The position numbers and the translations under genes are program-made. Shown piece by piece: positions 1,616 to 36,663 of a DNA stretch of 37,583 nt (within the stretch, counting starts at the first letter, position 1; each line of letters starts with the position of its first letter). The DNA comes from a virus. The DNA is taken from IMG/VR virus record IMGVR_UViG_3300027974_000008; one strand, written 5' to 3'. The notes under the pieces are model-generated. The model did not search any database and had not been told where the DNA came from. It saw only the letters and a program-made list of their open reading frames with translations.

Positions 1616-1616
1616 T

Positions 1617-1895: not shown

Positions 1896-1896
1896 T

Positions 1897-2091: not shown

Positions 2092-2095
2092 TTGT

Positions 2096-2332: not shown

Positions 2333-2338
2333 GCCTCT

Positions 2339-2752: not shown

Positions 2753-2761
2753 GAGTAGGCG

Positions 2762-3891: not shown

Positions 3892-3899
3892 GAGACTAA

Positions 3900-4862: not shown

Positions 4863-4863
4863 T

Positions 4864-12209: not shown

Positions 12210-12212
12210 GCA

Positions 12213-20140: not shown

Positions 20141-20313
20141 AATTGGCTCTGTCATGGCTGCTCTACTTTTTGGGTGACATAATAAGTCGTACGCTTTTGC
20201 GTACGGGTCTTGGATACGGACTATACAAGACGCTGATGCTTTGGTCGGTAGAACTGGATGACAAGTTTAATGTGTGGAAAGAAGTTAAACCTAGCGGAAG
20301 GGGCAAAAAATGA
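20137..20313 (+). CDS. Small membrane protein (58 aa)
   Basis: Not in the track. MKLALSWLLYFLGDIISRTLLRTGLGYGLYKTLMLWSVELDDKF... It has ATGA overlaps at both ends. Confidence 0.45.
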   Translation: MKLALSWLLYFLGDIISRTLLRTGLGYGLYKTLMLWSVELDDKFNVWKEVKPSGRGKK

Positions 20314-20975
20314 AACAAGCAATGGTAACTCAATCGTTTGGTGAGGACTGGCAAAAGATTCTGGATCTGACTAGGCCACGCATGGAGGCGTACTGCAAGC
20401 GTCACAACTGCGACTTCATTCTAATCGACAAACCCCTAACCCATCCAATGCAGTATTCTAAATCTGCCATTGGAAACATCATGGCCACTAAGGGCTATGA
20501 CCAAGTTACATTCGTTGACGCTGATGTTTTGATTACAGCCGATTGCCCCAAGCTTTCCGATGACGCTGGGGTGTTCTGCGCCTTTGATGAAGGGGCTTAT
20601 CTGGATCGCAAGCCAGAGATGGTGAAGCTGGCTGGAGCTTTCGGCGGGATGATCGAGCCTAAGTTCTACGTCAATACTGGCGTGTTCGTAGTTCACACTA
20701 AGGCCGTGGGTATCTTGTCGATGCCCCCAATCGGCCTGCACCCTAATCACTTCGCCGAGCAGACCTGGCTCAACGTCATGGCGCACTTGTGGAACATCCC
20801 GCTGACTGAGCTTGACCCATCCTTTAATTGCATGACGAGCGTGGAGTCGCACTTTGGTTTAGACCGCTACAAGGACGCAATGATTATTCATTACGCAGGG
20901 CAATCAAACGATCTGGTTAAGTTAGCTAACCAGATCAAAGAAGACGAAGCGAAGCTGGTGGGGTTGGGTAGGTGA
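20310..20975 (+). CDS. GT-A fold glycosyltransferase, GT8-like
   Basis: 221 aa. It has the DxD motif in VTFVDADVLI, plus FYVNTGVFVV, AEQTWLNV and IIHYAG, paralleling the GT8 (RfaI/RfaJ-type) motifs YLDaD, NsGv, DQd.LN and H..G. Confidence 0.55.
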   Translation: MKQAMVTQSFGEDWQKILDLTRPRMEAYCKRHNCDFILIDKPLTHPMQYSKSAIGNIMATKGYDQVTFVDADVLITADCPKLSDDAGVFCAFDEGAYLDRKPEMVKLAGAFGGMIEPKFYVNTGVFVVHTKAVGILSMPPIGLHPNHFAEQTWLNVMAHLWNIPLTELDPSFNCMTSVESHFGLDRYKDAMIIHYAGQSNDLVKLANQIKEDEAKLVGLGR

Positions 20976-21422: not shown

Positions 21423-21619
21423 GGAAAAGAAAAGGTAAGAGTATTAAGCTGGTTAAGACCGAGGAGTACAAAGCAGTAAAAATCTTTGTCAATGTGGACG
21501 ATGATCTTTACGAGGCTTTGGCCGAAGCTGGCAAGCAACACATTCTCAAAGACAAGACGGCTTGCTTTGAGTACGCATTAAACAAGGCATTACTGGAACT
21601 TTGCGAGGAAGTCAAATGA
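21419..21619 (+). CDS. Hypothetical protein
   Basis: 66 aa, coupled at both ends. Confidence 0.5.
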   Translation: MRKRKGKSIKLVKTEEYKAVKIFVNVDDDLYEALAEAGKQHILKDKTACFEYALNKALLELCEEVK

Positions 21620-22182
21620 GCGAGTTTAAGCAGAAGGTATTAACCGCAGCAGTTGACCGCTACGTCTTAACAAAGACACAGTGCGAGATGCTGCGCCAGG
21701 ATGCTGAGATCATTGGCATGAAGCGTGCGCCTGTTCTTGCAAAGGATGGCGTTACACAAAAAGTATCTCGTACAAGAACCTGCTCATCGTGCTGGATTCC
21801 GTATGCAAAGCATCATAACTGGATCTACAACATTATGCGCGAGATTACGGAAGGCATCAATGCCGAGCAATGGCGATTCGACATCCAAGGCATCCAACAG
21901 TTGCAGGTGCTTCGATATAATCCATTCCAGCGTTTCAAGTGGCACTTTGATACTTATACTGGCTCTGATCGCAAGCTGACAGCAGTGGTAAATCTTTCCG
22001 ATCCATCCGAATACCTTGGTGGTGGACTTCAAGTTAAGGCAGACATTGAGAACGTAAAGTTTATCCGCGAGCAAGGAGCAGGCTGTTGGTTTCCATCCTA
22101 CTTAGAGCATAGAGCGCGCGCGCCAATATGGGGTACACGCTGGGTGTTGGTGGCTTGGTTTACTGGACCTGCTTGGAAATGA
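21616..22182 (+). CDS. 2OG-Fe(II) oxygenase (prolyl-4-hydroxylase / PKHD-type)
   Basis: Track ORF 21601-22182. ATG at 21616 is ATGA-coupled. It has the HxD motif in KWHFDT, then RKLTAVVNLSDPSEYLGGGLQV, a distal His in YLEHRARA, and RWVLVAWF. Confidence 0.7.
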   Translation: MSEFKQKVLTAAVDRYVLTKTQCEMLRQDAEIIGMKRAPVLAKDGVTQKVSRTRTCSSCWIPYAKHHNWIYNIMREITEGINAEQWRFDIQGIQQLQVLRYNPFQRFKWHFDTYTGSDRKLTAVVNLSDPSEYLGGGLQVKADIENVKFIREQGAGCWFPSYLEHRARAPIWGTRWVLVAWFTGPAWK

Positions 22183-22769
22183 TCCACGCTGCCAATCTGC
22201 CTCGCCACTTGTACGTCAAGTGCGATATGGAGTTTGTGTCTGACGGCGAGAAGCAGGGCATAGAAGATGTTGTTTGGTTTGGCCTAACAGCAATTCCTGG
22301 CCGAGCTTGGGGATGTACAGTTATGCTCAAGTGCGGTGCGTTGTACCGAGGCTTGCCACTACACGCTCTGGCTCATGGCGAGATTGCAATTATGGATTGG
22401 GACATTAACGATGCGCAACGCTGGGATTGTTTTGGATGGAACTTCACGACAATTGAGTACGACTATCTGATGGGGTTGTCCTGCAAGGTTTGGATTGCCA
22501 ATAGAAAAACATGGGAAGTTGGTCGCTATCTATTCACAGCCGAGCCATACGGAGATGGGTTCTCTATGTCGCCAAGCCAAACCAAGTCACACCATTTTAT
22601 TGCGCTTAACAATGGACGCATCACGGCAGTTCCAGGTAATAATGTGCTTTGGCGCGAATCAAGTTTCACCACTCAATCCGAAAAGCCTAAATGGTTGCGG
22701 ACGCAATCGCAAGTATGGAATGGAGAAGAAGCCACATGGGATGATGTGGTTGGTGAAGAAACAGCATGA
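22179..22769 (+). CDS. Conserved-looking hypothetical protein
   Basis: Track ORF 22128-22769. ATG at 22179 forms an ATGA overlap. 196 aa, Trp-rich, no recognised motif. Confidence 0.5.
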   Translation: MIHAANLPRHLYVKCDMEFVSDGEKQGIEDVVWFGLTAIPGRAWGCTVMLKCGALYRGLPLHALAHGEIAIMDWDINDAQRWDCFGWNFTTIEYDYLMGLSCKVWIANRKTWEVGRYLFTAEPYGDGFSMSPSQTKSHHFIALNNGRITAVPGNNVLWRESSFTTQSEKPKWLRTQSQVWNGEEATWDDVVGEETA

Positions 22770-23358: not shown

Positions 23359-23630
23359 GCATACGAGAAGACATCCTTGACCAGTTCGGTGATGATGCCG
23401 AGACGATGTTGTTCGCTGACGGATTTGATGACGCGATCATCGGGGTTGGAAACAAGTTTGGTGATCAGCTTTGCGCTATTTATGATGCCGACAAAGTGAT
23501 TGACATTCTTATGAAAGAAGGAATGGATTATGCCGAGGCACTAGAACACTTTGATTTTAATATTGCAGGAGCTTATGTAGGTGAGCAGACTCCGATCTTC
23601 ATGCACAAAATAGAAAGGCAGGCCAAATGA
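23355..23630 (+). CDS. Hypothetical protein
   Basis: 91 aa, coupled, acidic. Confidence 0.5.
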   Translation: MSIREDILDQFGDDAETMLFADGFDDAIIGVGNKFGDQLCAIYDADKVIDILMKEGMDYAEALEHFDFNIAGAYVGEQTPIFMHKIERQAK

Positions 23631-24772
23631 AACTATGGACAAATAACACCAACGCAATTCACAAAGTCGATGACAATATGCTCTACCCGCGCACTACCTA
23701 TGTGCTGCCCGATGAGCTAACTGGACCAATCTGGGACGATTCAATCCCTTGCCCACACAAGATCAAGCCTTACTACAAGGGGCGTGCGGCTGGTGGCGCA
23801 ACAGCCGTCTACCGCGCTGGCGCAATTGGTGACGCGATCATCGCTACTGCCTTCGTCAACTACTTGGTGCAAGAATCGGGTGGGGTTGTGGAGGTTTACG
23901 CACCCGCACGCAACCTGCCTCTCTACGCTGGGCTGGGTGCAAAGCTGTGGCCGTTGCCATCCTCGCTGGAAGCTTGGGATTCTTTTGATGCACACCTACC
24001 TACTGACGATTTGTTCAGCGGGCAGGTAGGCAACACGAAGTTAGGCACTGGTCCTGGCAACTGCTACCAGAGGATCTACGAGTGGATGGGTGTGTGGGAT
24101 GAAAAGACGATGGCTAAGTACTGCAAGCCAGTCCTGCATCTCATAGAGCCAGATCACGAAGAGCTAAAGGCGATGGGCAAGTGGCCGTTGCCTAGCCCGT
24201 TCTTTGCTTACCACGTTAGCAGTTCTGGTCCTACCCGCACCTACCCGCCAACGATGGGGCAGGAGGCGGTGCTGGCGTTGCTTGAGGCTTATCCCAAGCA
24301 TCACGCTGTCATCATTGGGCTGGATAACTCAAACAACTTCAAGGTGGATCATCCACGAGTGATTGACCTATTCAACTGCACCAAGACTGTACGCTCGCTG
24401 TTCCCGATTATCAGCGGGGCTGACTTTGTTGTTGCTCCAGATAGCAGCGTCAATCATATGGCTGCTGGGTTGGATACGCCTTGCATTTCATTATGGGGAA
24501 GCTATCATCCAGATTGGAGAGTTAAGTATTACCCAAGGTCATATCCATTATATGCGCCCGAAGTATGTCCGCACGCTCCATGCGCTCCTCATGCTGGACT
24601 GCCACAATCCAAGTGTAAGGACGCATCAAATAAAACAAATAGAACTCAGTTTTGGTGCAACGCCCTAAGAAACATATCGGCAGATATGATTGTTGGGGCA
24701 GCCAAGAAAGTATTAGAAGATAATGAAAAACAAGAATTGCCCACACTGCAAACAAATAAAGCCAATATCTGA
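23627..24772 (+). CDS. GT9-like glycosyltransferase (heptosyltransferase family) with a C-terminal 4-Cys cluster
   Basis: 381 aa. RAGAIGDAIIATAFVNYL and FVVAPDSSVNHMAAGLDTPCISLWG match the GT9 N-terminal R..alGD and C-terminal DSg..HlAaA.g.P...lfG signatures. It also has CPHAPCAPHAGLPQSKCKDASNKTNRTQFWC, i.e. C-x4-C-x10-C-x13-C. Confidence 0.6.
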   Translation: MKLWTNNTNAIHKVDDNMLYPRTTYVLPDELTGPIWDDSIPCPHKIKPYYKGRAAGGATAVYRAGAIGDAIIATAFVNYLVQESGGVVEVYAPARNLPLYAGLGAKLWPLPSSLEAWDSFDAHLPTDDLFSGQVGNTKLGTGPGNCYQRIYEWMGVWDEKTMAKYCKPVLHLIEPDHEELKAMGKWPLPSPFFAYHVSSSGPTRTYPPTMGQEAVLALLEAYPKHHAVIIGLDNSNNFKVDHPRVIDLFNCTKTVRSLFPIISGADFVVAPDSSVNHMAAGLDTPCISLWGSYHPDWRVKYYPRSYPLYAPEVCPHAPCAPHAGLPQSKCKDASNKTNRTQFWCNALRNISADMIVGAAKKVLEDNEKQELPTLQTNKANI

Positions 24773-25343
24773 CTTCTCTAAAAGAAGCGATTGCAAGCTT
24801 GGTTTGATGTCATGGTGTAGACCATGCAATAGGGGTAAGGTCAGGAAATATAGACTAAATAACAAGCAAAAGTGTTATGCAAATATGCTTAAATGGAGAG
24901 GAAAAAATAAATCAAAGTTATTGGCTATACAGAAAAGATACAGATCAAACAACCCACTAAACTTGCGGTCAACTAAAATGGTTTATGAGGCTAGATCAAA
25001 GTCATTAATAAAAAACTTGCCGTTTAACATTGATTACAAATATGTTCATAGTCTGTGTAGAAATGGCAAATGTGCCATAACTGGAATTGAGTTTAAAACT
25101 ACAGGCGGGAAGAACCCTTACTCTCCCAGCCTTGACAGGATAGTTCCTGAGCTGGGATATGTAAGGGGAAATGTAAGGGTAATACTTTGGTCATTAAATG
25201 CCTTCAAAAATAAATGGTCTGATTCTGAAATTTATCCTATTGCAAAACAATTTTGTAAGTCATATGAAGAAAGTCTTACCAATCCAGCGGATGGTACGCA
25301 GGGAGATCCTGCGTCTGGTGTCCTCAGTGTGTCCACCACTTGA
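24723..25343 (+). CDS. HNH-family (degenerate) homing-type endonuclease
   Basis: 206 aa. It has an N-terminal CPHC...CRPC zinc motif and SLDRIVPELGYVRGNVRVILWSLNAFKNKWSD, like phage HNH-type proteins. My hand count gives about 34% G+C over 240 nt, against about 62% in 120 nt of the GT9 gene. It overlaps the GT9 3' end by 50 nt. Confidence 0.5.
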   Translation: MKNKNCPHCKQIKPISDFSKRSDCKLGLMSWCRPCNRGKVRKYRLNNKQKCYANMLKWRGKNKSKLLAIQKRYRSNNPLNLRSTKMVYEARSKSLIKNLPFNIDYKYVHSLCRNGKCAITGIEFKTTGGKNPYSPSLDRIVPELGYVRGNVRVILWSLNAFKNKWSDSEIYPIAKQFCKSYEESLTNPADGTQGDPASGVLSVSTT

Positions 25344-25362: not shown

Positions 25363-27321
25363 ATGACAACAGCACAACGACAAGCTGAAGAGATTGTAGG
25401 CCAAGTGGATTGGCAGTCCGAAAACCACGGGCTGTGCAAGTGTCCTGGTGAAGCTGCACATACCAGCCACACTCGCATCCGCGACACAACGGTGTTCGTA
25501 GACGGCGCGCCGACTATCTTTTGCTGGCATACTTCCTGCACGCCGTATCGTGATGAGGCCAACCGCAAGTTGCGCCGAGCTATATCCAGCGATGTTCTTT
25601 ACAAGCCTGTCAACATTATGTCGGGTGGCACAGCCGTGCCGAAGCTGATCATCAAGAAAGACCCGCACTCCGAGGTGCTGGATAGGATCAAGACTGTTGC
25701 TGAGTCAAACAAGCAACGATACCTAACCCACTACAATTGGGAGACTGCGGATATGTTTGAGGAAAGTCCGACCAAGCTGGACGATCCAGCACAGGACTAT
25801 CAGTTGTTCCTATCCCTGTTCAACGCTGTCGATAACATCTGGATAGGTAACGTCACGGATAGCGGAAAGCATCCGCAAAACTTCCGCACAGCTTACGATT
25901 GGAAGAAGCTGGATGAGCCGATTGGGCAGTACACAACTGGCGCGACCTACAAGCAAGGCACAGTCAGTAGGTCCAACGATACGGTTGAGGATAGGATATT
26001 CTTGGTTGTCGAGTCGGATGTACTTACTAAACCACAGATGGGTGCGGTGTTCCAATTGATGCGTGACTTGTTCAAGCTTCGGTTGCGTGCCGTTGTGGAT
26101 ACTGGTGGCAAGAGTTTGCACGGATGGTTTGATATGCCGTCCAACAAGGAATTGATTGACCAGTTGAAAACATTTCTTATTCCGCTTGGATGTGACCCAG
26201 CAACATTCAAGCCTAGTCAGCCAGTTCGGATACCTGGGGCAAAAAGAAACGACAAAATGCAGAGCCTGTTATGGTTCTACAAGGGAGGAAAGATGAATGA
26301 ACTACCGATGATTGAACCCGCCGTGGCCTTAGGTATCAAACCGAAGACGGACGAGTGGCCGCCGATCAAATCTTATGCACAACTTGTTAAGGAAGACTTA
26401 CCCGCACCAGAGACGCTAATTGATGGAATGTTGCACAGAGGCGGGAAGATGTTGTTGGGTGGAGGAAGCAAGGCGTTTAAGAGTTGGAGTCTAATTGACC
26501 TAGCCCTTTCGTTACATGCTGGCGTACCTTGGTGGGGGCAGCAGTGCAAGATGTCGCGGGTGTTGTTCATCAACTTTGAGATCCAAGAGTGGAGTTTTCG
26601 CAATCGGTTAGCAGATGTTATCAAGGCCAAAGGACTAGAAGACAAGGCTGATGACTTTGATGTGTGGACGCTCCGAGGTCACGCTGCCGATCTAACTCTC
26701 ATCCGTCCTATGATCGAGAAGCAGATTGAAGGTAAGGGCTACCAAGCGATCATCCTTGACCCAAACTATATGCTGATGGGTGAGAGGGATGAGAACAGCG
26801 CGGGTGATATGTCATCACTGATGAATGAGTTTGAGTACCTAGCTACCCGCCACAATCTGTCGATCATCCTCTCACACCACTTCAGTAAGGGTAACAAGTC
26901 GGGTGCAGAGTCGATTGACCGCTTCAGTGGGTCGGGCGTGTTCGCCCGTAATCCAGACACGCTGGTCGTTCTGACTGCCCACGAGGAGGATGAGAAGACC
27001 TACACTTGCGACATCACGCTACGCAACTTCCCGCCAGTAGATAGCTTTGTCGTTCAGTGGCATTATCCGCTGTTCCAAGCCAATTTTGCACTCAATCCAG
27101 ATAAGCTAAAGAAGCCAGGCGCACACAAGGCTGTTGACGATAAAAGGTTCTTAACTGAAATGGGTAGCAAGCAGTGGCAGGCGGGTGATTTATGTCGTCA
27201 TATCATTGAAAAGCTGGAAGTATCGGAAAGTACCTTTTATCGCTATCTAAAACGCCTTCACAAAGCCAACAAGATATTGTCTGACAGCGGCTTGTATATT
27301 GCCAATCAGACTGCTTTCTAA
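25363..27321 (+). CDS. Primase (AEP/prim-pol-like) fused to a RecA-fold replicative helicase (AAA_25/RepA-like)
   Basis: 652 aa. It has an N-terminal Cys/His cluster, then FLVVESD, TGGKSLHGWF and VRIPGAKR (prim-pol-like motifs). Next come MLLGGGSKAFKSWSLIDLALSL (Walker A-like) and AIILDPNYML (Walker B-like). Confidence 0.6.
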   Translation: MTTAQRQAEEIVGQVDWQSENHGLCKCPGEAAHTSHTRIRDTTVFVDGAPTIFCWHTSCTPYRDEANRKLRRAISSDVLYKPVNIMSGGTAVPKLIIKKDPHSEVLDRIKTVAESNKQRYLTHYNWETADMFEESPTKLDDPAQDYQLFLSLFNAVDNIWIGNVTDSGKHPQNFRTAYDWKKLDEPIGQYTTGATYKQGTVSRSNDTVEDRIFLVVESDVLTKPQMGAVFQLMRDLFKLRLRAVVDTGGKSLHGWFDMPSNKELIDQLKTFLIPLGCDPATFKPSQPVRIPGAKRNDKMQSLLWFYKGGKMNELPMIEPAVALGIKPKTDEWPPIKSYAQLVKEDLPAPETLIDGMLHRGGKMLLGGGSKAFKSWSLIDLALSLHAGVPWWGQQCKMSRVLFINFEIQEWSFRNRLADVIKAKGLEDKADDFDVWTLRGHAADLTLIRPMIEKQIEGKGYQAIILDPNYMLMGERDENSAGDMSSLMNEFEYLATRHNLSIILSHHFSKGNKSGAESIDRFSGSGVFARNPDTLVVLTAHEEDEKTYTCDITLRNFPPVDSFVVQWHYPLFQANFALNPDKLKKPGAHKAVDDKRFLTEMGSKQWQAGDLCRHIIEKLEVSESTFYRYLKRLHKANKILSDSGLYIANQTAF

Positions 27322-27360
27322 TCCACTTTCAACCCACTATCATTTATAGAGCAGTCAGAC

Positions 27361-27378
27361 TCCTTATATATATAAGGA
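27361..27378. repeat. Perfect 18-bp AT-rich palindrome TCCTTATATATATAAGGA
   Basis: Read directly. It lies in the intergenic region 40 nt after the primase-helicase stop. Confidence 0.9.
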
Positions 27379-27396
27379 ATAATTCGCGAAGGAAAA

Positions 27397-27432
27397 GTAG
27401 GAACAGGACTCCTTAGTCCGTCCTGTCCCTAC
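27397..27432 (+). terminator. Hairpin (13-position stem with one mismatch, 10-nt loop)
   Basis: GTAGGAACAGGAC-tccttagtcc-GTCCTGTCCCTAC, downstream of the long plus-strand operon. Confidence 0.5.
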
Positions 27433-27434
27433 TA

Positions 27435-27455
27435 CGCTACGCTATTTCCGTAGCG
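27435..27455 (+). terminator. Second hairpin (7-bp stem, 7-nt loop) followed by TTCTCC
   Basis: CGCTACG-ctatttc-CGTAGCG read directly. Confidence 0.45.
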
Positions 27456-27475
27456 TTCTCCTAAATGAACAAACA

Positions 27476-27497
27476 GGGCTGGCTGGGCTGGGCAGGG
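27476..27497 (+). other. G-quadruplex-type motif (G3-N6-G3-N2-G3-N2-G3)
   Basis: GGGctggctGGGctGGGcaGGG on the plus strand, intergenic. Confidence 0.4.
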
Positions 27498-27532
27498 CTG
27501 GTTCGCACACGCTCGCACCTGCCGAGACGGAG

Positions 27533-27562
27533 TTGGTGATAAGGTGGTGGGTGTGGTACAAT
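27533..27562 (+). promoter_or_regulatory. Candidate sigma70-type promoter (TTGGTG, 18-nt spacer, TGg-TACAAT)
   Basis: It has an extended -10-like TG. The -10 ends 7 nt before the ATG at 27569, which would give a leaderless mRNA. Confidence 0.35.
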
Positions 27563-27568
27563 CGTGAA

Positions 27569-27712
27569 ATGAACAACAGCAAGCCAGGTTTATACGCTAA
27601 CATTAACGCTCGCCGCAAGGCTGGCACTAGCCGTCCTAAATCTAAAAGCACCATCAGCCCCAAGGTGTGGCGCATGATGAAAGCCAAGAAGGGTGGGTTT
27701 GAATCACGATAG
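27569..27712 (+). CDS. Small basic protein (47 aa) with a GLYANINARRK motif
   Basis: Not in the track. MNNSKPGLYANINARRKAGTSRPKSKSTISPKVWRMMKAKKGGFESR*. I recall the G-L-[WY]-A-N-I-x-A-[KR]-[KR] motif from small phage and giant-virus proteins. Confidence 0.45.
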   Translation: MNNSKPGLYANINARRKAGTSRPKSKSTISPKVWRMMKAKKGGFESR

Positions 27713-27977
27713 AGAGCAGTTGAAGGTAGCGCACAAGTTCATTGCCCTGCTTCAACGTGAGAATGCACAGTTGCATGGCGTGCTACGCTTGCTAGGCCAA
27801 CTGGTAGATGATATGAATGCAAACTGCTCCTATGAAGTATTCGAGGTGCAATGGAACAGCCTTACAGATCAGGTCAAGAGGCTGTCAGGCTTCTTTGAAA
27901 CACACCAGAAGGCACTACAATCGCTCCACGATGCCTGTCCTGAGGCTTTTGACTCCGATGAGGTAGATGAGTCGTGA
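27693..27977 (+). CDS. Hypothetical protein (start uncertain)
   Basis: 94-aa track ORF with a GTG start. An alternative TTG start lies at 27720. Confidence 0.45.
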   Translation: MGLNHDREQLKVAHKFIALLQRENAQLHGVLRLLGQLVDDMNANCSYEVFEVQWNSLTDQVKRLSGFFETHQKALQSLHDACPEAFDSDEVDES

Positions 27978-28210
27978 ATCCTAGAGACTTACCCTGTAAC
28001 TCACCACGCAGGACTCCAGGTGGACCTAAGAAGTTTGTGGTACGAGCCTGCCAAGGAGGAGAGAGCAAGACTATCCGCTATGGCGACCCCAAGATGACAA
28101 TTAAGAAGAGTAATCCAGACCGCCGCAGGAGCTTTAGGGCTAGGCATCATTGCGACTCTAAGCCTCCCGCCAAAACCTCTGCCAGATACTGGAGTTGCAA
28201 GAATTGGTGA
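27974..28210 (+). CDS. Small basic conserved-looking protein
   Basis: 78 aa. KKFVVRACQGGESKTIRYGDP...RRRSFRARHHC...SARYWSCKNW resembles a small protein family I recall from phages and large DNA viruses. Confidence 0.5.
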   Translation: MNPRDLPCNSPRRTPGGPKKFVVRACQGGESKTIRYGDPKMTIKKSNPDRRRSFRARHHCDSKPPAKTSARYWSCKNW

Positions 28211-28215
28211 CAAGT

Positions 28216-28371
28216 ATGCCTAAAAAGACACGCCACAATGCCTCAAAATCGAGCAAGGATGCCCCTAGAAAGCGTCTTAAACCACGATCTGATGCCCCAG
28301 ACCTTCCAGTGGTCAAATTTAAGGTTGAGGAGCTAGGAAACAAAGCCTGCTGCTGCCGTATCGGACGCTAG
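28216..28371 (+). CDS. Possible small basic protein (51 aa)
   Basis: Not in the track. MPKKTRHNASKSSKDAPRKRLKPR... It has no clear RBS. Confidence 0.25.
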   Translation: MPKKTRHNASKSSKDAPRKRLKPRSDAPDLPVVKFKVEELGNKACCCRIGR

Positions 28372-28446
28372 GCTGCCGTTTATACGCCCCTTATAGGGCT
28401 ATTCTACACACCCCTTATAGGGCTATCGCTCCCGCGAAAGGCTACG

Positions 28447-28635
28447 CTACCGTTTGGATGCCTGCGCTTCCGTTTGACGCTCCCGCCGAAACTTATCCCA
28501 ACGCTTCCGCTGTGCCTGCGCTACAGTTTGGTAATGCTCCCGCGACAACTTGCGAGCCTTGCAAGATCCTTTGACGCTCCCGCCCTTACGCCCAAGGCGC
28601 GAAAGGTAGGCTTTGATAATTTCGTCTTCTGTCAT
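28447..28635 (-). CDS. Small basic protein, putative nucleic-acid binding (62 aa)
   Basis: LGRKGGSVKGSCKARKLSREHYQTVAQAQRKRWDKF resembles the common GRKGG...RW small proteins of mobile elements. DNA repeats run through it. Confidence 0.45.
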   Translation of the reverse strand: MTEDEIIKAYLSRLGRKGGSVKGSCKARKLSREHYQTVAQAQRKRWDKFRRERQTEAQASKR

Positions 28636-28649
28636 ATTTTTATGTTGTC

Positions 28650-28679
28650 CTTATAGGGTGCTATGCTTCCGTTTGTAAA
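28650..28679 (-). promoter_or_regulatory. Candidate promoter for the 28635 gene (TTTACA, 18-nt spacer, TATAAG)
   Basis: Read on the minus strand. The -10 lies inside a CCTTATAGGG repeat copy and ends 14 nt from the ATG. Confidence 0.3.
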
Positions 28680-28750
28680 GACGGAATGCCTGCGCTGCCG
28701 TTTATAGGCAAGCGCGAAAGCCGTTGGGGCTTGAACCCTTGGCGGGTTTG

Positions 28751-28927
28751 TTATCTTGTCTTAATTCCCTCCCCGACAATCTTGTTAATCAGCTTTAGGG
28801 AATACTCCCCCCATTGCTCCATAGCTATCTGCACCGTCCTTTTATAAGATACGCCCTCTTTTTTGGCCAGCTTTCGGAGATAACTTTCGGTTATTCCAGC
28901 CTCATCTAATTGCTTAGGGTGTTTCAT
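28751..28927 (-). CDS. Small putative DNA-binding protein (58 aa)
   Basis: Track ORF 28751-28996. The internal ATG at 28927 follows AGAGGA. MKHPKQLDEAGITESYLRKLAKKEGVSYKRTVQIAMEQW is helix-turn-helix-like by eye. Confidence 0.4.
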   Translation of the reverse strand: MKHPKQLDEAGITESYLRKLAKKEGVSYKRTVQIAMEQWGEYSLKLINKIVGEGIKTR

Positions 28928-29046
28928 GTGTTCCTCTTTCTTTCTTTCATTCGCGCAATCAATAAAGACTGCGCTGCCGTTATTAGGCCATCCCAAGCGG
29001 GTTTGACCTCTCCCACCCTCGGTAAAGAGGATGGACGAGGGAAAAC

Positions 29047-29139
29047 TTATTTCCGTTTATTCCTTGGCCATACCAGCACCACAAACAAGGCGAGGAGGAC
29101 ACCGTGCAGCATCCCAAGGGAATAGAGTTGGGGGTTCAT
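29047..29139 (-). CDS. Possible 30-aa membrane peptide
   Basis: MNPQLYSLGMLHGVLLALFVVLVWPRNKRK*. It has an ATGA overlap with the upstream gene stop. Confidence 0.3.
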   Translation of the reverse strand: MNPQLYSLGMLHGVLLALFVVLVWPRNKRK

Positions 29140-29309
29140 TCTTTCACCTCCTCCGCGCGCAATATCTCCCAATCTCCACTAGGCGAATCCTCAGACCATT
29201 CCGCGCCGTCCATGTTTGCAGCCTTGTCCAATGCTTCATACTCATCCTTTGCGGATACTTCCAGCTCGTATTGTGTAATACTTTGCGCAATTACTATATA
29301 TTTCTTCAT
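29136..29309 (-). CDS. Small acidic protein (57 aa)
   Basis: Not in the track. MKKYIVIAQSITQYELEVSAKDEYEALDKAANMDGAEWSEDSPSGDWEILRAEEVKE*. An AAGGAA RBS lies upstream. Confidence 0.45.
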   Translation of the reverse strand: MKKYIVIAQSITQYELEVSAKDEYEALDKAANMDGAEWSEDSPSGDWEILRAEEVKE

Positions 29310-29324
29310 TTTGTTTTCCTTTCC

Positions 29325-29582
29325 TTAGTCAACGTATGGGAAGGAAAGATTGTCATCCTCCCACGGTTTGATTGTGATTATGTAGTGAACACGATTGCAG
29401 AGATGATACCCCGCTAGTATGGTTAGAATCCCGCTATCACCGTCAACCACCGTCCAGATATGTCTATGCTTTTGATTTACTACAAAGGCAGCGTCCTCTC
29501 CATAAGTCTCAAAGGCAATGCTTCCTTCCTCTCGCATGATTGGAAGATAATCATCTATGCTTTTCTTTTGCTTTTTCTTCAT
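29325..29582 (-). CDS. Hypothetical protein (85 aa)
   Basis: Track ORF, part of the coupled minus-strand chain. Confidence 0.5.
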   Translation of the reverse strand: MKKKQKKSIDDYLPIMREEGSIAFETYGEDAAFVVNQKHRHIWTVVDGDSGILTILAGYHLCNRVHYIITIKPWEDDNLSFPYVD

Positions 29583-29863
29583 TTTGTTTTTGTCTCCTTT
29601 TCTTTTCTTCCCTGCTTAATTCCGTCCTGAAATATCTTTTCAAATTGCTCGCCAAGCATGACGCACAAGTCCGCAATCTCATCAGGAGGATATGACTCAA
29701 AGGGCTGCCAAGGCTCAATCCCATCAGGCATATCGCTCATAGAATCATAAAGGGCTTTAGTTATCTGCTCTCCCTTTGTGTATGCTTCCCCATCCCAATG
29801 AGACAGGTATTGACCGCACGCTTCCAATAGGAAGTCTTGCTTTTCTGCTTTCGTGTTTTTCAT
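29579..29863 (-). CDS. Hypothetical acidic protein (94 aa)
   Basis: Track ORF 29579-29926. ATG at 29863 (MKNTKAEKQDF...) forms an ATGA overlap with the upstream stop. Confidence 0.5.
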   Translation of the reverse strand: MKNTKAEKQDFLLEACGQYLSHWDGEAYTKGEQITKALYDSMSDMPDGIEPWQPFESYPPDEIADLCVMLGEQFEKIFQDGIKQGRKEKETKTK

Positions 29864-30012
29864 TTTGTGCCTTCTCTTTCTTTTCTTATTATCGCACTCC
29901 ATTCCATTCCCTCCCGCTGCGCCCAACGTAGGGCGCGAGCGTAGGAAGTGAACCGCGCGAAAAATTGCCCGACTGAATTATATACGGCGTAGGAGTGTTT
30001 AGTGTTTGCCAT
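29860..30012 (-). CDS. Small protein (50 aa)
   Basis: Track ORF 29860-30081. The internal ATG at 30012 gives MANTKHSYAVYNSVGQFFARF..., just downstream of the preceding stop. Confidence 0.4.
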   Translation of the reverse strand: MANTKHSYAVYNSVGQFFARFTSYARALRWAQREGMEWSAIIRKEREGTK

Positions 30013-30631
30013 ATGCAACAACCTCCTGCTTCCTATCCCAACAAGCGCGGCAGGTAAGGCACTTGTTCCCCTGTTCCGCACTTGGGCAAGTTTTCCCGCT
30101 TGTGACTACAGTTGAAACTTGCACACCCAAACGGCGAGCCAATGGCAACGGCGCAATGCCGTCTATCATATGCGCGGAAAGGCGAATGGTAAGATTCGCA
30201 GGCACTTTCCCGCCGTTATTGATGAACGATTGAAGGATTCCCGCTTCTCTTGTGGGTAACCAATGGCGCACGTTGGGGGTGCGTTCGCATACTTCGACTA
30301 TCTTTTTAAGATGATTCTGATTTTGGATGTCTCCAGAATCGTGCCATCTGAAGAACGAATTACCCTCAGCTTCTATAAGGTAAACTATGCTATCCACCCA
30401 ATCTGAACGGCGCAATGAGCGCAAACGGCGAGCCAAGGCATTGCGCACTGCGGGGTAATTATAATTCCCTTTCATCGCGTAGCACTTGCTACACACCGAA
30501 CCCTCAACCTTTCTCAGCTTCCCGCCTACCTTACAAAGGCTCGCGGGAATTGAGTAGGCGGGACAAGGCATTTTGGAAGGGCGAGAGAATCCACCTCCCG
30601 TTGACGTTGTAGCATGTTCGAATGTCATCAT
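29999..30631 (-). CDS. Cys-rich protein, GP88-family-like (function unknown)
   Basis: Track ORF 29999-30652. ATG at 30631 forms an ATGA overlap. There are two 4-Cys groups (CPAYSIPASLC...CSKCYA and CPSAEQGNKCLTCRAC) and an FRWHDSGD motif. The family name is from memory. Confidence 0.5.
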   Translation of the reverse strand: MMTFEHATTSTGGGFSRPSKMPCPAYSIPASLCKVGGKLRKVEGSVCSKCYAMKGNYNYPAVRNALARRLRSLRRSDWVDSIVYLIEAEGNSFFRWHDSGDIQNQNHLKKIVEVCERTPNVRHWLPTREAGILQSFINNGGKVPANLTIRLSAHMIDGIAPLPLARRLGVQVSTVVTSGKTCPSAEQGNKCLTCRACWDRKQEVVAYGKH

Positions 30632-30864
30632 TTTGTATTCTCCTGTATCCAATTAATAATTTTTGACGCATAGTAAGAAGTAGTTAAGCCGTTTAAAAAC
30701 ATCTCAATATTAAAAAAGTCCAACGGCCAACGGAAAACGCGAATTTCAATAGTCTCTTTTTGCATAGTCGCGTTCCTAATTCTTACTACTGTTTTATCTT
30801 CTGAAACTATCGACTGGATAATTCCACCCGTGCAATACTCGCCAAGTTTAAACGTTTTTTTCAT
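30628..30864 (-). CDS. Hypothetical protein (78 aa)
   Basis: Strong RBS (aaaaggagaacacactATG on the minus strand). Confidence 0.55.
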   Translation of the reverse strand: MKKTFKLGEYCTGGIIQSIVSEDKTVVRIRNATMQKETIEIRVFRWPLDFFNIEMFLNGLTTSYYASKIINWIQENTK

Positions 30865-30888
30865 AGTGTGTTCTCCTTTTTCTTTTGT

Positions 30889-30969
30889 TTAGTTTTTACC
30901 AAAATACCCAATCGCCATAAATAGAACGCATGGCGAGAGGAATAGGATCGCTAGCGTAAGGTCAATCAT
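30889..30969 (-). CDS. Possible 26-aa membrane peptide
   Basis: MIDLTLAILFLSPCVLFMAIGYFGKN*. It has an ATGA overlap with the upstream stop. Confidence 0.3.
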   Translation of the reverse strand: MIDLTLAILFLSPCVLFMAIGYFGKN

Positions 30970-31154
30970 TTTGATAACGCCTTTAACGCGACTGATCGAA
31001 CCGATAAAAGCAGATCAATCGGGTCAACATTGCAATATCCAATTTTCAATTCTGGCTTTGTGATTCTTTCAATCGACTTGAGCGCAGATAGAAGTTTTTT
31101 AATGGTGCAAGCGTCTTGAACCGCGCTCGCTTCGGTGTGTGTTGTGTTATTCAT
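30966..31154 (-). CDS. Hypothetical protein (62 aa), first gene of the minus-strand cluster
   Basis: Track ORF with no obvious Shine-Dalgarno sequence. It is divergent from terS. Confidence 0.45.
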   Translation of the reverse strand: MNNTTHTEASAVQDACTIKKLLSALKSIERITKPELKIGYCNVDPIDLLLSVRSVALKALSK

Positions 31155-31228
31155 AAAAGCAAAGTAATACCATCGGACTGAATAAGCAATACTTTCTTTT
31201 CACTTTAGATAAGGTATAAGGGTGACTT

Positions 31229-31903
31229 ATGGATGAAATTAGCGCATCTCCAGGCGCAATAGAAAAAGCCAAAAACGGGCGCGAGATATTTACCGACAAA
31301 ATCGCGGATGAAATAGTGGCAGCTTGTGGGAGTGGATTCACGCTCGAAAAAGCGGGCGCGCTTGTGGGTGTCAATCCTTCCACAATTAGAACGTGGGCGC
31401 AGCGCAAACCAGAATTCGGCAAGAGAGTCGAGACAGCCCGCAAAAAGCATGAGCTGTCTCTTCTGAAGGACATACAACTTGCGGGCGAGAAGTCATGGCA
31501 GGCCAAGGCGTGGATTCTGGAGCGTGGATACAATTGGGCGCAACCCTCTGCCCGCTTGCAAGTTGCGCAGGATGTCACCCACAATATAGGCGGAAACTTG
31601 GCGCAGCTTCTCGCGGGGATTGCGGGCAGAAAGAAAAATACGGCGAGTGCGGAAAAGCGACAAATTGAAAGCGGTCATAACTACATTGATATTCAACCAG
31701 TTACTACCAAACCAAAAAATGATTTGTCGAATAATAAGTATTGTATCAACAAGAGCAACATTGTTGAGCAACAACAAGATGCACTACCAAAAACTCCTAA
31801 GCTTCGACACAAGCAAATGAGACGAAGAAAGCCTAGAGCAGAATCCCTTGCAAAGTATCCGCCTACCACGACACCACCTGCCACTCCCCCAGCCCCCATT
31901 TAA
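31229..31903 (+). CDS. terS: Terminase small subunit (HTH-type)
   Basis: 224 aa immediately upstream of terL. FTLEKAGALVGVNPSTIRTWAQRKPEFGKRVETARKK is the typical N-terminal HTH of small terminase / DNA-packaging proteins. Confidence 0.65.
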   Translation: MDEISASPGAIEKAKNGREIFTDKIADEIVAACGSGFTLEKAGALVGVNPSTIRTWAQRKPEFGKRVETARKKHELSLLKDIQLAGEKSWQAKAWILERGYNWAQPSARLQVAQDVTHNIGGNLAQLLAGIAGRKKNTASAEKRQIESGHNYIDIQPVTTKPKNDLSNNKYCINKSNIVEQQQDALPKTPKLRHKQMRRRKPRAESLAKYPPTTTPPATPPAPI

Positions 31904-33761: not shown

Positions 33762-33891
33762 GTCTTTAATGCGAGATGAAAACTATTCTTCTATCCGTAC
33801 TGCTGATCCAAAAGTTCGCGCTTGGGCAAAGCGTGCTTTGCATTACGTCAACGATCTGTCATTTGAATTGAGCAGAGAAAGACAAAAATGA
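33652..33891 (+). CDS. Lipoprotein (o-spanin-like or exclusion lipoprotein candidate)
   Basis: Track ORF 33571-33891. TTG at 33652 gives MKTIGARIAKLLTAICLVSLGGC..., a textbook lipoprotein signal with an L-G-G-C lipobox. Its stop overlaps the portal ATG. Confidence 0.45.
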   Translation: MKTIGARIAKLLTAICLVSLGGCATTTPVTQTTGAVESLMRDENYSSIRTADPKVRAWAKRALHYVNDLSFELSRERQK

Positions 33892-35768
33892 ACGCTAAAG
33901 ATACACGCCGTACAGATTATTACACAAGGATCATTGACGCACTTAACCAGCGCGAAACTTGGGAAAACCGCCAGCGGTTGTTCTATCAAGCTCGCTACTT
34001 TGGCGTACGCCGTAAGGTCAAGCCTTGGCCTACAGCAGCTGATTTGCACGTTCAACTAATTGACACGGCGATTGAGAAGCTAAAGCCTTCATTCGTCAAC
34101 AGCGCGATTGGCAACGACATCCTTTCCAGCTTCGTACCGATGCGCCAGCAGTTGACTCCGCTTACTGTATCAGCCGAGCGTTGGTTTGATTACAATATGC
34201 GCGAGCGTACCAACTTCCAGAAAGAGATTGTTTCCGTAATTGACAACTTGCTTCTCTATGGGCGTGGCGTGTCAAAGGTAATTTGGAACGAGGACAAGAA
34301 GCGCATTGAGTTTGAGGCAATTGATCCTTTCCACATCATCGTTCCTTCCTATACCAAGGAGTTCAAAGATGCAGATTTCATCGTTCACATCATCTCAACG
34401 AGTGTCGATTCCTATAAGGCAAATCCCTTGTACAAACAGGATGAGGACTTTATCAAAACAATTTCGGGTAAACCATCCAAATCGGTGGGCTTACGAAGTG
34501 AGATTCAAGACGAGATTTATAGACGTGAGGGAATTACTCAAGAAGCTGAGAATGATCGCATCATTCTTTGGGAGATGTACACACCTTCTGAAGACGGATG
34601 GAAAGTCGAGACGTACAGTCCGCTTGTCGTAACTGAAGATGTCCGCAAACCTTTCACATTACCCTATCGTCATGGTGAACCACCTTTCGTAGATTTCCCC
34701 TATGAGGTCACAGGGGGCGGTTGGTACAGTCCGAGAGGCGTAGCAGAGATCCTGCTCCCTAATGAGAATCTGCTAAATAAGCTCAAGAACTCCCTCTCCG
34801 ATTACGTTGAACTGGCCAACCGACCCGTTTTCGAAGCACAGAATCCTATCTCGCTAAACACATCGAACCTGAAGATGCAACCTGGGCAGATCCTGCCACA
34901 AGGTTTGAAACCAGTTCAGTTTAGCCAACCTCCATTCGACTTCCAGAAATTGATGCTTGAAGAGCGTCTGCTTTCTGAACAGCGGATGGGCAATCCAGAC
35001 TTTGGTTCTGGCTCTCAGTTCCAGGTGTCGGATCGCAAGACTGCTACCGAGATTCAAGCGTTGCAGTCGCAGGCAGCAGCGTCTGGCGATTTACGCAATC
35101 GTATGTTTAGGATGGGTTTAGCCCATCTCTTTAAACAGTGTTGGTCGCTTTACACGCAGTACAACAAGAAAGACTTAATGTATCGCTATGCTGAAGAAAC
35201 TGGCACGATGCCACCCGAAGGTATCCACGATGAGTATTCCATTGAGCCAAAGGGTGGACTTGACTTCATCAACCGCCAGTTTGCGTTGCAGAAGTCTGTG
35301 GCGCGAATGCAGATGTTCCAAAATAATCCTTTTGTCAATCAAGGCGAACTGGTAAAGTCAGTGCTTGAACAAGACGATCCATCGCTGGTCCGCAGACTCT
35401 TCCAAGATCCGAACGCAGCCTCTGGCGATCAAGCTGAAGATCAAGCGACTGAAATTGCGACTATGCTTGCAACTGGATTCCCAGTCGCAATCAAGCCTAG
35501 CGATGACCACAAAGCGCATATATCCGTTCTCTTCGCGTTTAACCAAGCGGCTCAAGCAAGGCAACAGCAGGTCGATCAGAGTGCAATGCAAGTTCTGATG
35601 GCACATTTACAACAGCACTTGGCAGCCTTGGAACAGGTTGACCCCAATACATCCCGCGCTATCCAGAAACAGCTTCGTGATGCAGGTAAGGCTCAAATGC
35701 AACAGCAGGGGCAACAATTGCCTCCAGAAGCAATGCAAGGCCAAGCACCAGCACCGATGGCGGGTTGA
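33888..35768 (+). CDS. Portal protein
   Basis: 626 aa, between terL and scaffold/capsid, with a Gln-rich C-terminal tail. The call rests on size and synteny. Confidence 0.75.
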   Translation: MNAKDTRRTDYYTRIIDALNQRETWENRQRLFYQARYFGVRRKVKPWPTAADLHVQLIDTAIEKLKPSFVNSAIGNDILSSFVPMRQQLTPLTVSAERWFDYNMRERTNFQKEIVSVIDNLLLYGRGVSKVIWNEDKKRIEFEAIDPFHIIVPSYTKEFKDADFIVHIISTSVDSYKANPLYKQDEDFIKTISGKPSKSVGLRSEIQDEIYRREGITQEAENDRIILWEMYTPSEDGWKVETYSPLVVTEDVRKPFTLPYRHGEPPFVDFPYEVTGGGWYSPRGVAEILLPNENLLNKLKNSLSDYVELANRPVFEAQNPISLNTSNLKMQPGQILPQGLKPVQFSQPPFDFQKLMLEERLLSEQRMGNPDFGSGSQFQVSDRKTATEIQALQSQAAASGDLRNRMFRMGLAHLFKQCWSLYTQYNKKDLMYRYAEETGTMPPEGIHDEYSIEPKGGLDFINRQFALQKSVARMQMFQNNPFVNQGELVKSVLEQDDPSLVRRLFQDPNAASGDQAEDQATEIATMLATGFPVAIKPSDDHKAHISVLFAFNQAAQARQQQVDQSAMQVLMAHLQQHLAALEQVDPNTSRAIQKQLRDAGKAQMQQQGQQLPPEAMQGQAPAPMAG

Positions 35769-36295
35769 AAGTACCAGTAATGCGGGATGCCTTCCAAGCG
35801 GAAGGCTTAAAACATCTCTGTCAGTGGGCTAACGAACAAGGTGCAACTGGTAAGGCAATTGAGATTGGCGCGTATAGTGGCGAGGGAACAGTAGTCATAG
35901 CCAATCATTTTAAGGAAGTTTTAGCAGTAGATCCGTGGCTTAATGGTTACGATATTAACGATAGGGCAAGCCAGCAATGCCCGATGAAGTTTGTCTTTGA
36001 GGCATTCGAAGAACGCACAACCCCACTTGGCAATGTTCTATACAGCAGAGGTAAAAGCCTAGACGCGCTCCAATTCTTCAAGGATGGTGAACTAGACCTA
36101 ATTTACATAGACGGAGATCACCGCTACGAAGGCGTGCTGGCAGACTTAAATGGGTGGAGGTCCAAGCTTCGGGCTGGCGGGATAATGGCTGGACATGATT
36201 GGAGTTTTAAGTCTGTGCAACAGGCATTGGTTGAGGTATTTAAGGACAAAGAAGCAGTCCTATTTCAAGGCGATTCCTGGGCAATAAAACTATGA
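35765..36295 (+). CDS. Class I SAM-dependent methyltransferase (Methyltransf_24/CmcI-like)
   Basis: 176 aa. It has the motif I-like AIEIGAYSGEGT, plus DLIYIDGDHRYEGVLADL and GGIMAGHDW, typical of this small methyltransferase class. Confidence 0.65.
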   Translation: MKVPVMRDAFQAEGLKHLCQWANEQGATGKAIEIGAYSGEGTVVIANHFKEVLAVDPWLNGYDINDRASQQCPMKFVFEAFEERTTPLGNVLYSRGKSLDALQFFKDGELDLIYIDGDHRYEGVLADLNGWRSKLRAGGIMAGHDWSFKSVQQALVEVFKDKEAVLFQGDSWAIKL

Positions 36296-36615
36296 GAAAA
36301 CTAAAAGCAGCATTGGCGTTTATCAGAGATCAAGAATGGGTCAACGAACCCAAGTGGGAAGATGAGGACGAGAAGGCGTGGACAGGCTTTTTGTCAACCC
36401 CAACGGGACAGAAGCTAAGTCTTATTTTGCTTAACCTAACCCTGCGTCAAAACGCCTCTGCGGTAATGAAGAAACCAGAGGAACTTGCAGACGCTTGTGG
36501 ACGTGCTAAAGGGTTTAGAGGATGTGTAGCGACCTTAGAATCGCTCGCATCCCAAAAACTTAACTCCGCCATCCCAGGCTATGGGGATGGATCGGATGAA
36601 CCAGTAGCCGACTAA
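36292..36615 (+). CDS. Hypothetical protein
   Basis: 107 aa, ATGA-coupled to the methyltransferase gene. Confidence 0.5.
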   Translation: MRKLKAALAFIRDQEWVNEPKWEDEDEKAWTGFLSTPTGQKLSLILLNLTLRQNASAVMKKPEELADACGRAKGFRGCVATLESLASQKLNSAIPGYGDGSDEPVAD

Positions 36616-36663
36616 CCTTTAGGTAGAATGACTCCCTACCGAAAAGTGTAAGAAAGGGTCAAA

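Follow-up and report, generated by a model that had tools for sequence, protein, structure and literature searches.

The best-described proteins close to the enzyme considered here are the lipopolysaccharide (LPS) heptosyltransferases WaaC and WaaF (RfaF), and TibC, a bacterial autotransporter heptosyltransferase (BAHT; TibC/AAH, PDB 4RAP/4RB4). In TibC, Cys339, 342, 358 and 370 form an iron finger, residues 1–97 form an N-terminal flattened eight-stranded beta-barrel, and a beta-hairpin thumb with the hydrophobic tip F265/V266 is needed for the dodecamer; D110, the equivalent of WaaC D13, is catalytic, and T226, K230, R286 and W305 are sugar ligands (PMC4358343). The gene under study lies in a stretch of virus DNA of 37,583 nucleotides (IMG/VR record IMGVR_UViG_3300027974_000008; the whole stretch is called the window below). 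From the sequence alone it had been proposed to encode a glycosyltransferase of family 9 (GT9), possibly BAHT-like rather than an LPS enzyme. It was found that this proposal stood in part, the product probably not being a classical LPS core enzyme and its cysteines matching the TibC finger in position, but that BAHT membership was contradicted by the BAHT model TIGR04414, the thumb, the donor motif and a profile closer to WaaF. Taken as a whole, the explanation that we rate somewhat above even is that the protein represents a phage-borne GT9 clade, which is neither an LPS heptosyltransferase I, II or III equivalog nor a BAHT.

The open reading frame (ORF) opens with an ATG that overlaps the stop codon of the upstream ORF (ATGA), and the N-terminus MK(L)W was common to all homologues. 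Direct reading of the codons confirmed the predicted motif CPHAPC-x10-C-x13-C, exactly so, within 24555–24660. A word-indexed search returned 47 homologue clusters (51–91% identity, and one at 30%), 27 of which, down to 30% identity, made up alignment A1. C314, H316, C319, C330 and C344 were invariant across these 27 relatives. An exhaustive profile search gave 4,810 representatives at E < 1e-3 and 64 at E < 1e-30, and a second alignment, A2, was built from 63 diverse relatives with a mean column identity of 24%. Only seven columns of A2 were invariant, namely G68, D69, H277 and the four cysteines, confirming that the cysteine motif is far beyond chance. A second word-indexed search hardly enlarged the family, but it yielded a chromosomal acidobacterial GT9 protein (P0202), which was used for comparison below.

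The distribution of the gene was that of a phage gene. In IMG/VR, 370 close loci were found. When relatives were anchored on the large terminase subunit (TerL), all those extending at least 8.4 kb upstream of it carried the GT9 gene, at 66–95% identity. A tblastn search of 50,697 GenBank phage records (INPHARED, cultured phages) gave no homologue, and cluster look-ups of distant family members returned metagenome proteins without names only. When 185,579 species genomes were scanned with the close alignment, there were two matches, each on a short contig: a Gammaproteobacteria assembly (L083, CAUYTX010000021.1; 8.9 kb, homologue 82% identical) and a fragment in a Verrucomicrobia metagenome-assembled genome (L084, RGTE01000400.1). 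Both contigs are probably phage DNA, and no firm host can be taken from them. The C-terminal tail of the window protein was ~12 aa longer than in most homologues. Two distant members with several GT9 domains, P0155 (1080 aa) and P0124 (769 aa), carried a long insertion beginning C-L-A-G-D-T-K-I, which in P0155 ended with ...V-H-N-C, immediately behind the first knuckle in one of the Cys clusters; the insertion resembles an intein that contains a homing-endonuclease domain.

The GT9 signatures proposed originally were recovered by both sequence and structure. PF01075 (GT9) was matched at 29.3 bits (gathering score 22), in residues 258–296 only, a motif of 39 aa. The family profile searched against the PDB matched WaaF over both lobes (E = 4e-24), 3TOV (6e-14) and WaaC (2e-12), and TibC was absent from its matches at E up to 10. 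When the single protein or a close-family profile was searched against the PDB, only the ~40-aa WaaC/WaaF motif was retrieved, and never TibC. The family profile also matched PnsB1 of the NDH complex in plant chloroplasts (E from 1e-7 to 5e-6), which agrees with a GT9-like fold for this subunit. The AlphaFold model had a two-lobe GT-B fold, with a predicted local distance difference test score (pLDDT) of 82.8 and a predicted template modelling score (pTM) of 0.84. All of the top 30 Foldseek matches were WaaF, TibC, 3TOV or WaaC at probability 1.0. WaaF came first (E 7.8e-15, template modelling (TM) score 0.55), then TibC (E ~1e-11, query-normalised TM 0.54–0.61, root-mean-square deviation (RMSD) 9.6–11.8 Å), then 3TOV and WaaC (1e-10). 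Viral GT9-like proteins in BFVD (uncultured Caudovirales 'RfaF' and 'Aah/TibC', Synechococcus phages and giant viruses) shared the fold at Foldseek E from 9e-16 to 1e-10, but were only 11–17% identical to the window protein in sequence; to our knowledge, all of them are uncharacterised.

Under identical hhalign conditions, the family profile was compared with single sequences, tibC being taken from the genome of enterotoxigenic Escherichia coli H10407. E. coli WaaF was matched at 98.9% (E 2.9e-17), P0202 at 98.7% (1.9e-16), E. coli WaaC at 96.8% (2.2e-10) and TibC at 87.3% (3.8e-6), the weakest of the four. The alignment that the original prediction had called for thus placed the family nearer WaaF than TibC. 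Closeness to WaaF did not extend to equivalog level. The best score on an NCBIfam LPS heptosyltransferase model was 23 bits, on TIGR02195 (cut-off 134.6), and the other heptosyltransferase equivalogs (TIGR02193, TIGR02201 and RfaC/RfaF/RfaQ) gave 12–20 bits against cut-offs of 170–569; five diverse family members likewise fell under every one of these cut-offs.

The catalytic elements of GT9 enzymes could be assigned by alignment (Table 1). R204 of the predicted phosphate loop was invariant in A1 and conserved in at least 90% of A2, and P271, D272 and S273 of the donor-sugar motif were each at least 90% conserved in A2. The protein thus resembled WaaF/RfaF, especially Neisseria RfaF, in its GT-B fold, its G-D motif, its phosphate loop of Ser/Thr and Lys/Arg and its D-S-x-x-x-H donor motif, and shared with Neisseria RfaF four cysteines in the same columns before the last helix. 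It differed in having a first knuckle of C-x4-C instead of C-x2-C, longer loops, a 57-aa N-terminal extension and an acidic lobe (isoelectric point (pI) 5 versus ~10), and in being a phage gene instead of part of an LPS cluster.

The four cysteines were at the centre of the original argument, which held that LPS heptosyltransferases have no such cluster. This was true of E. coli WaaC and WaaF only. Four GT9 genes were found by tblastn with P0202 against a plasmid collection (some mislabelled chromosomes included), with the Cys segments CSPCFKRECPLGHTDC (N. gonorrhoeae RfaF), CRYCYRSVCPLGHQAC (Ralstonia waaF), CRWCYRSVCPQHHHAC (Paraburkholderia waaF) and CRPCAIHGGNSCPEKHFRC (Fusobacterium GT9), so that Neisseria RfaF and the Burkholderiaceae WaaF paralogues carry the four-cysteine (Cys4) cluster. 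The N. gonorrhoeae protein is an LPS heptosyltransferase II (HepII), with 454 bits on TIGR02195 against the cut-off of 134.6. P0202, whose gene sits in a Wza/Wzz/Wzy/GT2/HAD polysaccharide cluster on a 1.49-Mb contig, carried C-x2-C-x8-C-x4-C in the hhalign-aligned columns. In a MAFFT alignment, the Cys columns were identical in the window protein, its relatives P0047 and P0055, the Neisseria, Ralstonia, Paraburkholderia and Fusobacterium proteins and TibC, and the later cysteines of P0090, P0189 and P0202 were shifted by one or two columns. E. coli WaaF had Y/V/D/Q at these columns, and WaaC was deleted there. A sequence search with the P0202 Cys4 segment against solved structures matched no non-BAHT GT9, the WaaF and 3TOV alignments ending before the segment, and a literature search on zinc or cysteine sites in GT9 enzymes gave no description of a Cys4 site outside the BAHTs. 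On these alignments, the Cys4 cluster is ancestral in GT9 and was lost by enterobacterial WaaC/WaaF; the TibC iron finger and the C-P-H-x-P-C of the phage clade are two elaborations of it. Because the cluster occurs in LPS and polysaccharide GT9s too, it is not a BAHT marker and is uninformative on a protein acceptor.

When the protein was set against TibC residue by residue, a mixed picture was obtained. C314, C319, C330 and C344 paired one-to-one with C339, C342, C358 and C370 in both hhalign and MAFFT, at the same insertion point, whereas the spacing was C-x4-C-x10-C-x13-C here and C-x2-C-x15-C-x11-C in TibC; the suspected match to the iron finger therefore held in position and not in spacing. 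By hhalign, D69 aligned with D110, S200 with T226 and R204 with K230, each residue being retained or conservatively replaced. However, W305 aligned with N276, so that the tryptophan is not conserved, and R286 aligned with S257, the invariant R256 lying one position off. The donor motif was PDSSVNH, of the WaaC/WaaF type, compared with PSGLSW in TibC (MAFFT). On TIGR04414 (cut-off 200 bits), TibC scored 613.5 bits, while the window protein went unmatched (E limit 1), as did five relatives (E limit 0.1). Residues 231–244, equivalent to the thumb, were coil in the AlphaFold model, with the hairpin absent, and this segment was shorter than that of TibC by hhalign. The predicted structure was thus GT9-like, as anticipated, with TibC among its top matches but without the thumb. 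Both proteins have an extra beta-rich N-terminal region ahead of a GT9-related GT-B core; it measures 57 aa here against the 97-aa barrel, and no sequence similarity was detectable, hhalign beginning at TibC residue 94. Finally, tibC abuts tibA, while the window GT9 gene lies ~17.5 kb from the genes for the fibre-like proteins proposed as its substrates.

The N-terminal extension was absent from E. coli WaaC/WaaF and P0202. The hhalign alignments to WaaF, WaaC, P0202 and TibC all started at query residues 55–62, so that no counterpart of the extension could be detected in these four proteins. It was conserved across the diverse family (A2 consensus P..RYV), and is probably not an independent fold. 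The N-lobe, which is the acceptor lobe, had a net charge of −5 and a pI of 5.0 in the window protein, and the median charge of the 63 relatives was −6; the whole protein was at about −2. In contrast, the N-lobes of E. coli WaaC and WaaF, Neisseria RfaF, the Fusobacterium GT9 and P0202 ranged from +5 to +12, with pI of 9.8–10.3. The N-lobe of TibC was at +1, also non-basic, and those of the Ralstonia and Paraburkholderia plasmid waaF paralogues, whose flanking genes encode a HAD hydrolase and a carbamoyltransferase, were at −3. The acidic acceptor lobe and the extra N-terminal domain together indicate that the acceptor is probably neither membrane-bound, anionic inner-core LPS nor DNA.

The window is a phage genome, with genes for capsid, portal, terminase, endolysin, nucleases and primase-helicase. 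Its structural module leaves one end and resumes at the other, the portal and a methyltransferase at the 3' end and the capsid and fibres at the 5' end (33888–37583 joined to 1–6093), and related IMG/VR contigs measured 37.5–39.4 kb; the window probably represents the entire genome in circularly permuted form. The GT9 gene is part of the early/replication block, with small ORFs, an HNH/EndoVII-like endonuclease gene and the primase-helicase gene as neighbours. Upstream of it lie genes for a GT8-like transferase and an oxygenase (Table 1), and the order GT8, oxygenase, GT9, helicase was kept in the related phage L086, whose GT9 protein was 83% identical. Elsewhere, family members were fused to GT34, GT2, Methyltransf_24, Methyltransf_23 or further GT9 domains, P0078 being a GT9-Methyltransf_24 fusion. 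In the distant phage L174, a GT1-like gene was nearby and a Methyltransf_24 gene lay 4 kb from the GT9 gene. The fusions and the neighbours together indicate a multi-enzyme glycan pathway, in which the GT8-like transferase is a probable partner of the GT9 enzyme and the Methyltransf_24 enzyme a possible glycan-tailoring one.

Table 1. Positions of the GT9 gene, its sequence elements and other features of the window
Feature	Position	Strand	Remarks
GT9-family (GT-B fold) glycosyltransferase gene	23627..24772	+	381 aa; core gene of phage group; assigned from ORF, PF01075, WaaF profile match and Foldseek
N-terminal extension, residues 1-57, beta-rich	23627..23797	+	Strands 2-5, 12-14, 17-19, 24-27 at pLDDT 86-92 (AlphaFold); four to six short strands
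G68-D69, predicted catalytic base	23828..23833	+	Equivalent to WaaC D13 and TibC D110; both columns invariant in A2
S199-S200-G-P-T-R204, predicted nucleotide-sugar phosphate loop	24221..24238	+	Equivalent to WaaC T187/T188/K192 and TibC T226/K230 (hhalign)
P271-D272-S273-S-V-N-H277, canonical GT9 donor-sugar motif	24437..24457	+	Equivalent to WaaC D261-T-G-L-S-H266 (phmmer, MAFFT)
Four-cysteine knuckle C314-P-H316-A-P-C319-x10-C330-K-D-A-x-N-x8-C344	24566..24658	+	Codons read: C314 24566-24568, C319 24581-24583, C330 24614-24616, C344 24656-24658; predicted metal (Zn or Fe) site, tetrahedral; before last C-lobe helix
Two Ser/Thr/Gly-rich fibre-like proteins, candidate acceptors (hypothetical link)	3900..6093 (3900-4862, 4864-6093)	+	320 and 409 aa
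GT8-like (GT-A) glycosyltransferase	20310..20975	+	PF01501 weak here; E <=1e-5 for syntenic gene in relative L086
2OG-Fe(II) oxygenase, prolyl-4-hydroxylase type	21601..22182	+	PF13640 E 8e-11; phrog_61; PDB best 5C5T, a prolyl 4-hydroxylase, E 0.003; kept in L086
Methyltransf_24 SAM-dependent methyltransferase	35765..36295	+	PF13578 E 1e-17; after portal gene; in all relatives with coverage
213-aa protein	22128..22769	+	phrog_3704 ('ferredoxin') E 2e-28; no Pfam or PDB match
HNH/endonuclease VII-like gene	24723..25343	+	206 aa; phrog_3322 E 8e-31, phrog_1035
Primase-helicase (AAA_25)	25363..27321		One 652-aa ORF
Sparsely coding region	27321..31229		Minus-strand genes; GC and AT skew reverse locally
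GP88-family protein	29999..30652	-	Within the sparsely coding region

Several other features of this part of the genome were observed. The 213-aa protein, encoded between the oxygenase and the GT9 gene, was missing from the syntenic region of L086. The final 50 nt of the GT9 gene are shared with the HNH/endonuclease VII-like gene. In L086 the slot of the latter was occupied by ORFs of 55 and 189 aa, and an HNH gene was located elsewhere; the gene in the window looks like a mobile homing-endonuclease insertion. The primase-helicase of the 42-kb L086 was encoded by two genes of 308 and 338 aa (11961–13900). The sparsely coding region beyond the primase-helicase gene is a possible location for regulatory sequences or the origin of replication.

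The two fibre-like proteins had Ser+Thr contents of 35.6% and 31.8%. In the first of them, a 15-bp tandem repeat in four copies at 4220–4279 encodes (STATI)4, and a segment of ~37 residues was duplicated (GNITFGSNITASTGTATIGT...STATISTATIP). Neither had a Pfam match, including matches of AIDA or pertactin type. Ser/Thr-rich fibre genes were present in 5/5 sampled relatives whose sequence reaches the fibre region, and they were more variable between relatives than the GT9 gene. As the GT9 and fibre genes were both present in every relative with enough sequence, their co-occurrence is non-discriminating, and none of the analyses run gave a tool result that links the GT9 enzyme to the fibre proteins. 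Glycosylation of the fibres by the GT9 enzyme is possible but conjectural.

The protein is a GT-B transferase of CAZy family 9, and is taken to be soluble and inverting. As aligned with the GT9 scheme, D69 would deprotonate the hydroxyl of the acceptor, S199, S200 and R204 would hold the diphosphate of the nucleotide sugar, and D272 and H277 would hold the sugar. By family analogy, the donor would most likely be ADP-heptose of the host, although this assignment is uncertain; a host origin of the donor is expected because the phage encodes no sugar-nucleotide pathway. The Cys4 site is predicted to be a structural metal knuckle (Zn2+ or Fe3+), which would staple the loop before the last helix and stabilise the fold; its first knuckle is widened to C-P-H-x-P-C in the phage clade. 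With the GT8-like transferase, the Methyltransf_24 enzyme and the prolyl-hydroxylase-like oxygenase, all found beside it in related phages, the enzyme is proposed to make up a conserved set for glycan building; the set has the look of a toolkit for glycan or protein modification. For the acceptor, we infer in rough terms that a phage or host protein is the leading candidate, though short of even, and that a neutral envelope glycan is a less likely one; DNA would be a very improbable acceptor, and the remainder falls to other molecules.

A number of observations weigh against the explanation of a separate phage-borne clade as outlined above. That the acceptor is probably neutral and soluble is read from the net charge of a lobe, which is a crude proxy for acceptor type, and the Burkholderiaceae paralogues with mildly acidic N-lobes did pass the HepII cut-off (137–139 bits versus 134.6). 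Metal binding at the Cys4 site is presumed, and the Cys loop was poorly modelled in the metal-free AlphaFold model (pLDDT 44–62). No heptose-pathway or sugar-nucleotide synthesis gene was among the Pfam and PHROG matches of the window. The family gene of the distant phage L176 adjoins a gene for an epimerase. This epimerase was considered as an ADP-heptose 6-epimerase and rejected, being like the UDP-HexNAc 4-epimerases WbgU/WbpP (E 7e-72) and sharing just 28% identity with RfaD. The assumption of an ADP-heptose donor is therefore weakened. The clues to the host also conflict: of the two short contigs above, one is from a Gammaproteobacteria assembly and one from a Verrucomicrobia genome, and among cultured phages the closest TerL proteins were those of Akkermansia (Verrucomicrobia) phages, at 35–38% identity.

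Among the competing explanations, the one that survived best, although we consider it rather unlikely, follows the database label 'ADP-heptose:LPS heptosyltransferase'. The enzyme, together with the GT8-like transferase, would add sugars onto the LPS core or an envelope glycan of the host, for example to block superinfection or to keep progeny from adsorbing to lysing cells. GT8 and GT9 are the two classic families of LPS-core transferases, and both are encoded in the window. WaaF and then WaaC were the closest characterised proteins by sequence profile, Cys4-bearing GT9s were found in LPS and polysaccharide contexts, relatives are annotated by JGI as LPS heptosyltransferases, and the glycosyltransferase and methyltransferase fusions suggest the building of an oligosaccharide. 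However, scores of 12–23 bits against equivalog cut-offs of 134–569, an acidic acceptor lobe where five cellular LPS/polysaccharide GT9s have a strongly basic one, and an extra N-terminal domain that LPS enzymes lack all argue against it, as does the strictly phage-borne gene, with its two short-contig matches in the species genomes. In addition, the Pfam and PHROG matches of the window contained neither an integrase nor a repressor; the phage therefore looks lytic, and a remodelled LPS would presumably have little time to reach the surface.

Less probable again, and in our estimate unlikely, is the BAHT-like protein O-heptosyltransferase of the original prediction, in which the Cys4 iron finger would serve oligomerisation and the grip on the substrate, and host ADP-heptose would be transferred to serines of the fibre proteins. 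It is consistent with the one-to-one pairing of the cysteines and of D69 and R204 with TibC residues, with the query-normalised TM scores, which were highest for TibC (0.54–0.61 versus 0.55 for WaaF), and with a beta-rich extension where TibC has its barrel. In lacking a basic character the N-lobe resembles that of TibC and differs from those of the LPS enzymes, an oxygenase of the prolyl-hydroxylase type, a protein-modifying family, is encoded nearby, and fibres with 32–36% Ser+Thr recur in the five sampled relatives. Phage glycosyltransferases are described as glycosylating virions in mycobacteriophages (Freeman 2023, as cited in PMC12619734). Yet the Cys4 cluster is not BAHT-specific and is spaced differently, TIGR04414 gave no match, the hhalign comparison with TibC was the weakest, the thumb hairpin was absent, W305 was not conserved and the donor motif was of the WaaC type. 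The extension is shorter (57 versus 97 aa) and bears no detectable similarity to the barrel, the RMSD to TibC was 9.6–11.8 Å, and the gene stands ~17.5 kb from fibre genes whose products have no AIDA or pertactin Pfam match.

Unlikely too is the view that the clade would be an independent, WaaF-derived soluble protein O-glycosyltransferase, possibly a heptosyltransferase, which with the GT8-like transferase, the Methyltransf_24 enzyme and the oxygenase would equip the Ser/Thr-rich tail fibres of the phage itself with a methylated glycan. PBCV-1 A064R has two rhamnosyltransferase domains and a methyltransferase domain. The virion-glycan toolkits of mycobacteriophages (capsid and tail tube) and PBCV-1 likewise combine several viral glycosyltransferases with a methyltransferase, separate or fused, a precedent cited in PMC12619734, but they employ other glycosyltransferase families.

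The transfer of heptose or another sugar to hydroxymethylated pyrimidines of phage DNA for restriction evasion is highly improbable: the gene lies in a replication/nuclease module beside the primase-helicase gene with a 2-oxoglutarate (2OG) oxygenase and a GT-A enzyme nearby, and LPS-related phage glycosyltransferases, including heptose-adding GT-B enzymes, do modify 5-hydroxymethylcytosine (Pyle et al., bioRxiv 10.1101/2023.12.21.572611), sharing with the window enzyme an LPS-type origin, heptose among their sugars and a place near replication genes; but those enzymes are T4 beta-glucosyltransferase-like or GT-A, have a positive groove and come with a C5-methyltransferase and a TET-like oxygenase or a thymidylate-synthase homologue, whereas the Pfam and PHROG matches of the window included neither a C5-methyltransferase nor a TET/JBP-type oxygenase nor a thymidylate-synthase-like hydroxymethylase, the oxygenase is of the prolyl-hydroxylase type and the methyltransferase of the Methyltransf_24 (sugar/small-molecule O-methyltransferase) type, the protein is at about −2 overall with an acidic N-lobe, and its best structural matches were GT9 enzymes, T4 beta-glucosyltransferase not being among the 50 Foldseek matches listed.

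The comparison has consequences for the GT9 family as well as for the phage. The iron finger that has been described as unique to TibC and AAH is, by alignment, homologous to a widespread GT9 Cys cluster, which is also present in a genuine HepII; the Cys4 finger is thus unusable for predicting that an enzyme acts on proteins. In freshwater viromes the phage clade is abundant, and its acidic lobe, N-terminal extension and glycosyltransferase/methyltransferase fusions fit neither the LPS enzymes nor the BAHTs. If a host glycan were the acceptor, the gene would be an ordinary auxiliary surface-modifying gene. If the acceptor were a virion protein, phage virion glycosylation would extend beyond the mycobacteriophages, and the enzyme would offer a compact tool for glyco-engineering. 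If it were the fibres that are heptosylated, this would be the first case of heptose-type virion glycosylation among phages that infect Gram-negative bacteria, and the enzyme would be a functional analogue of the BAHTs outside their family.

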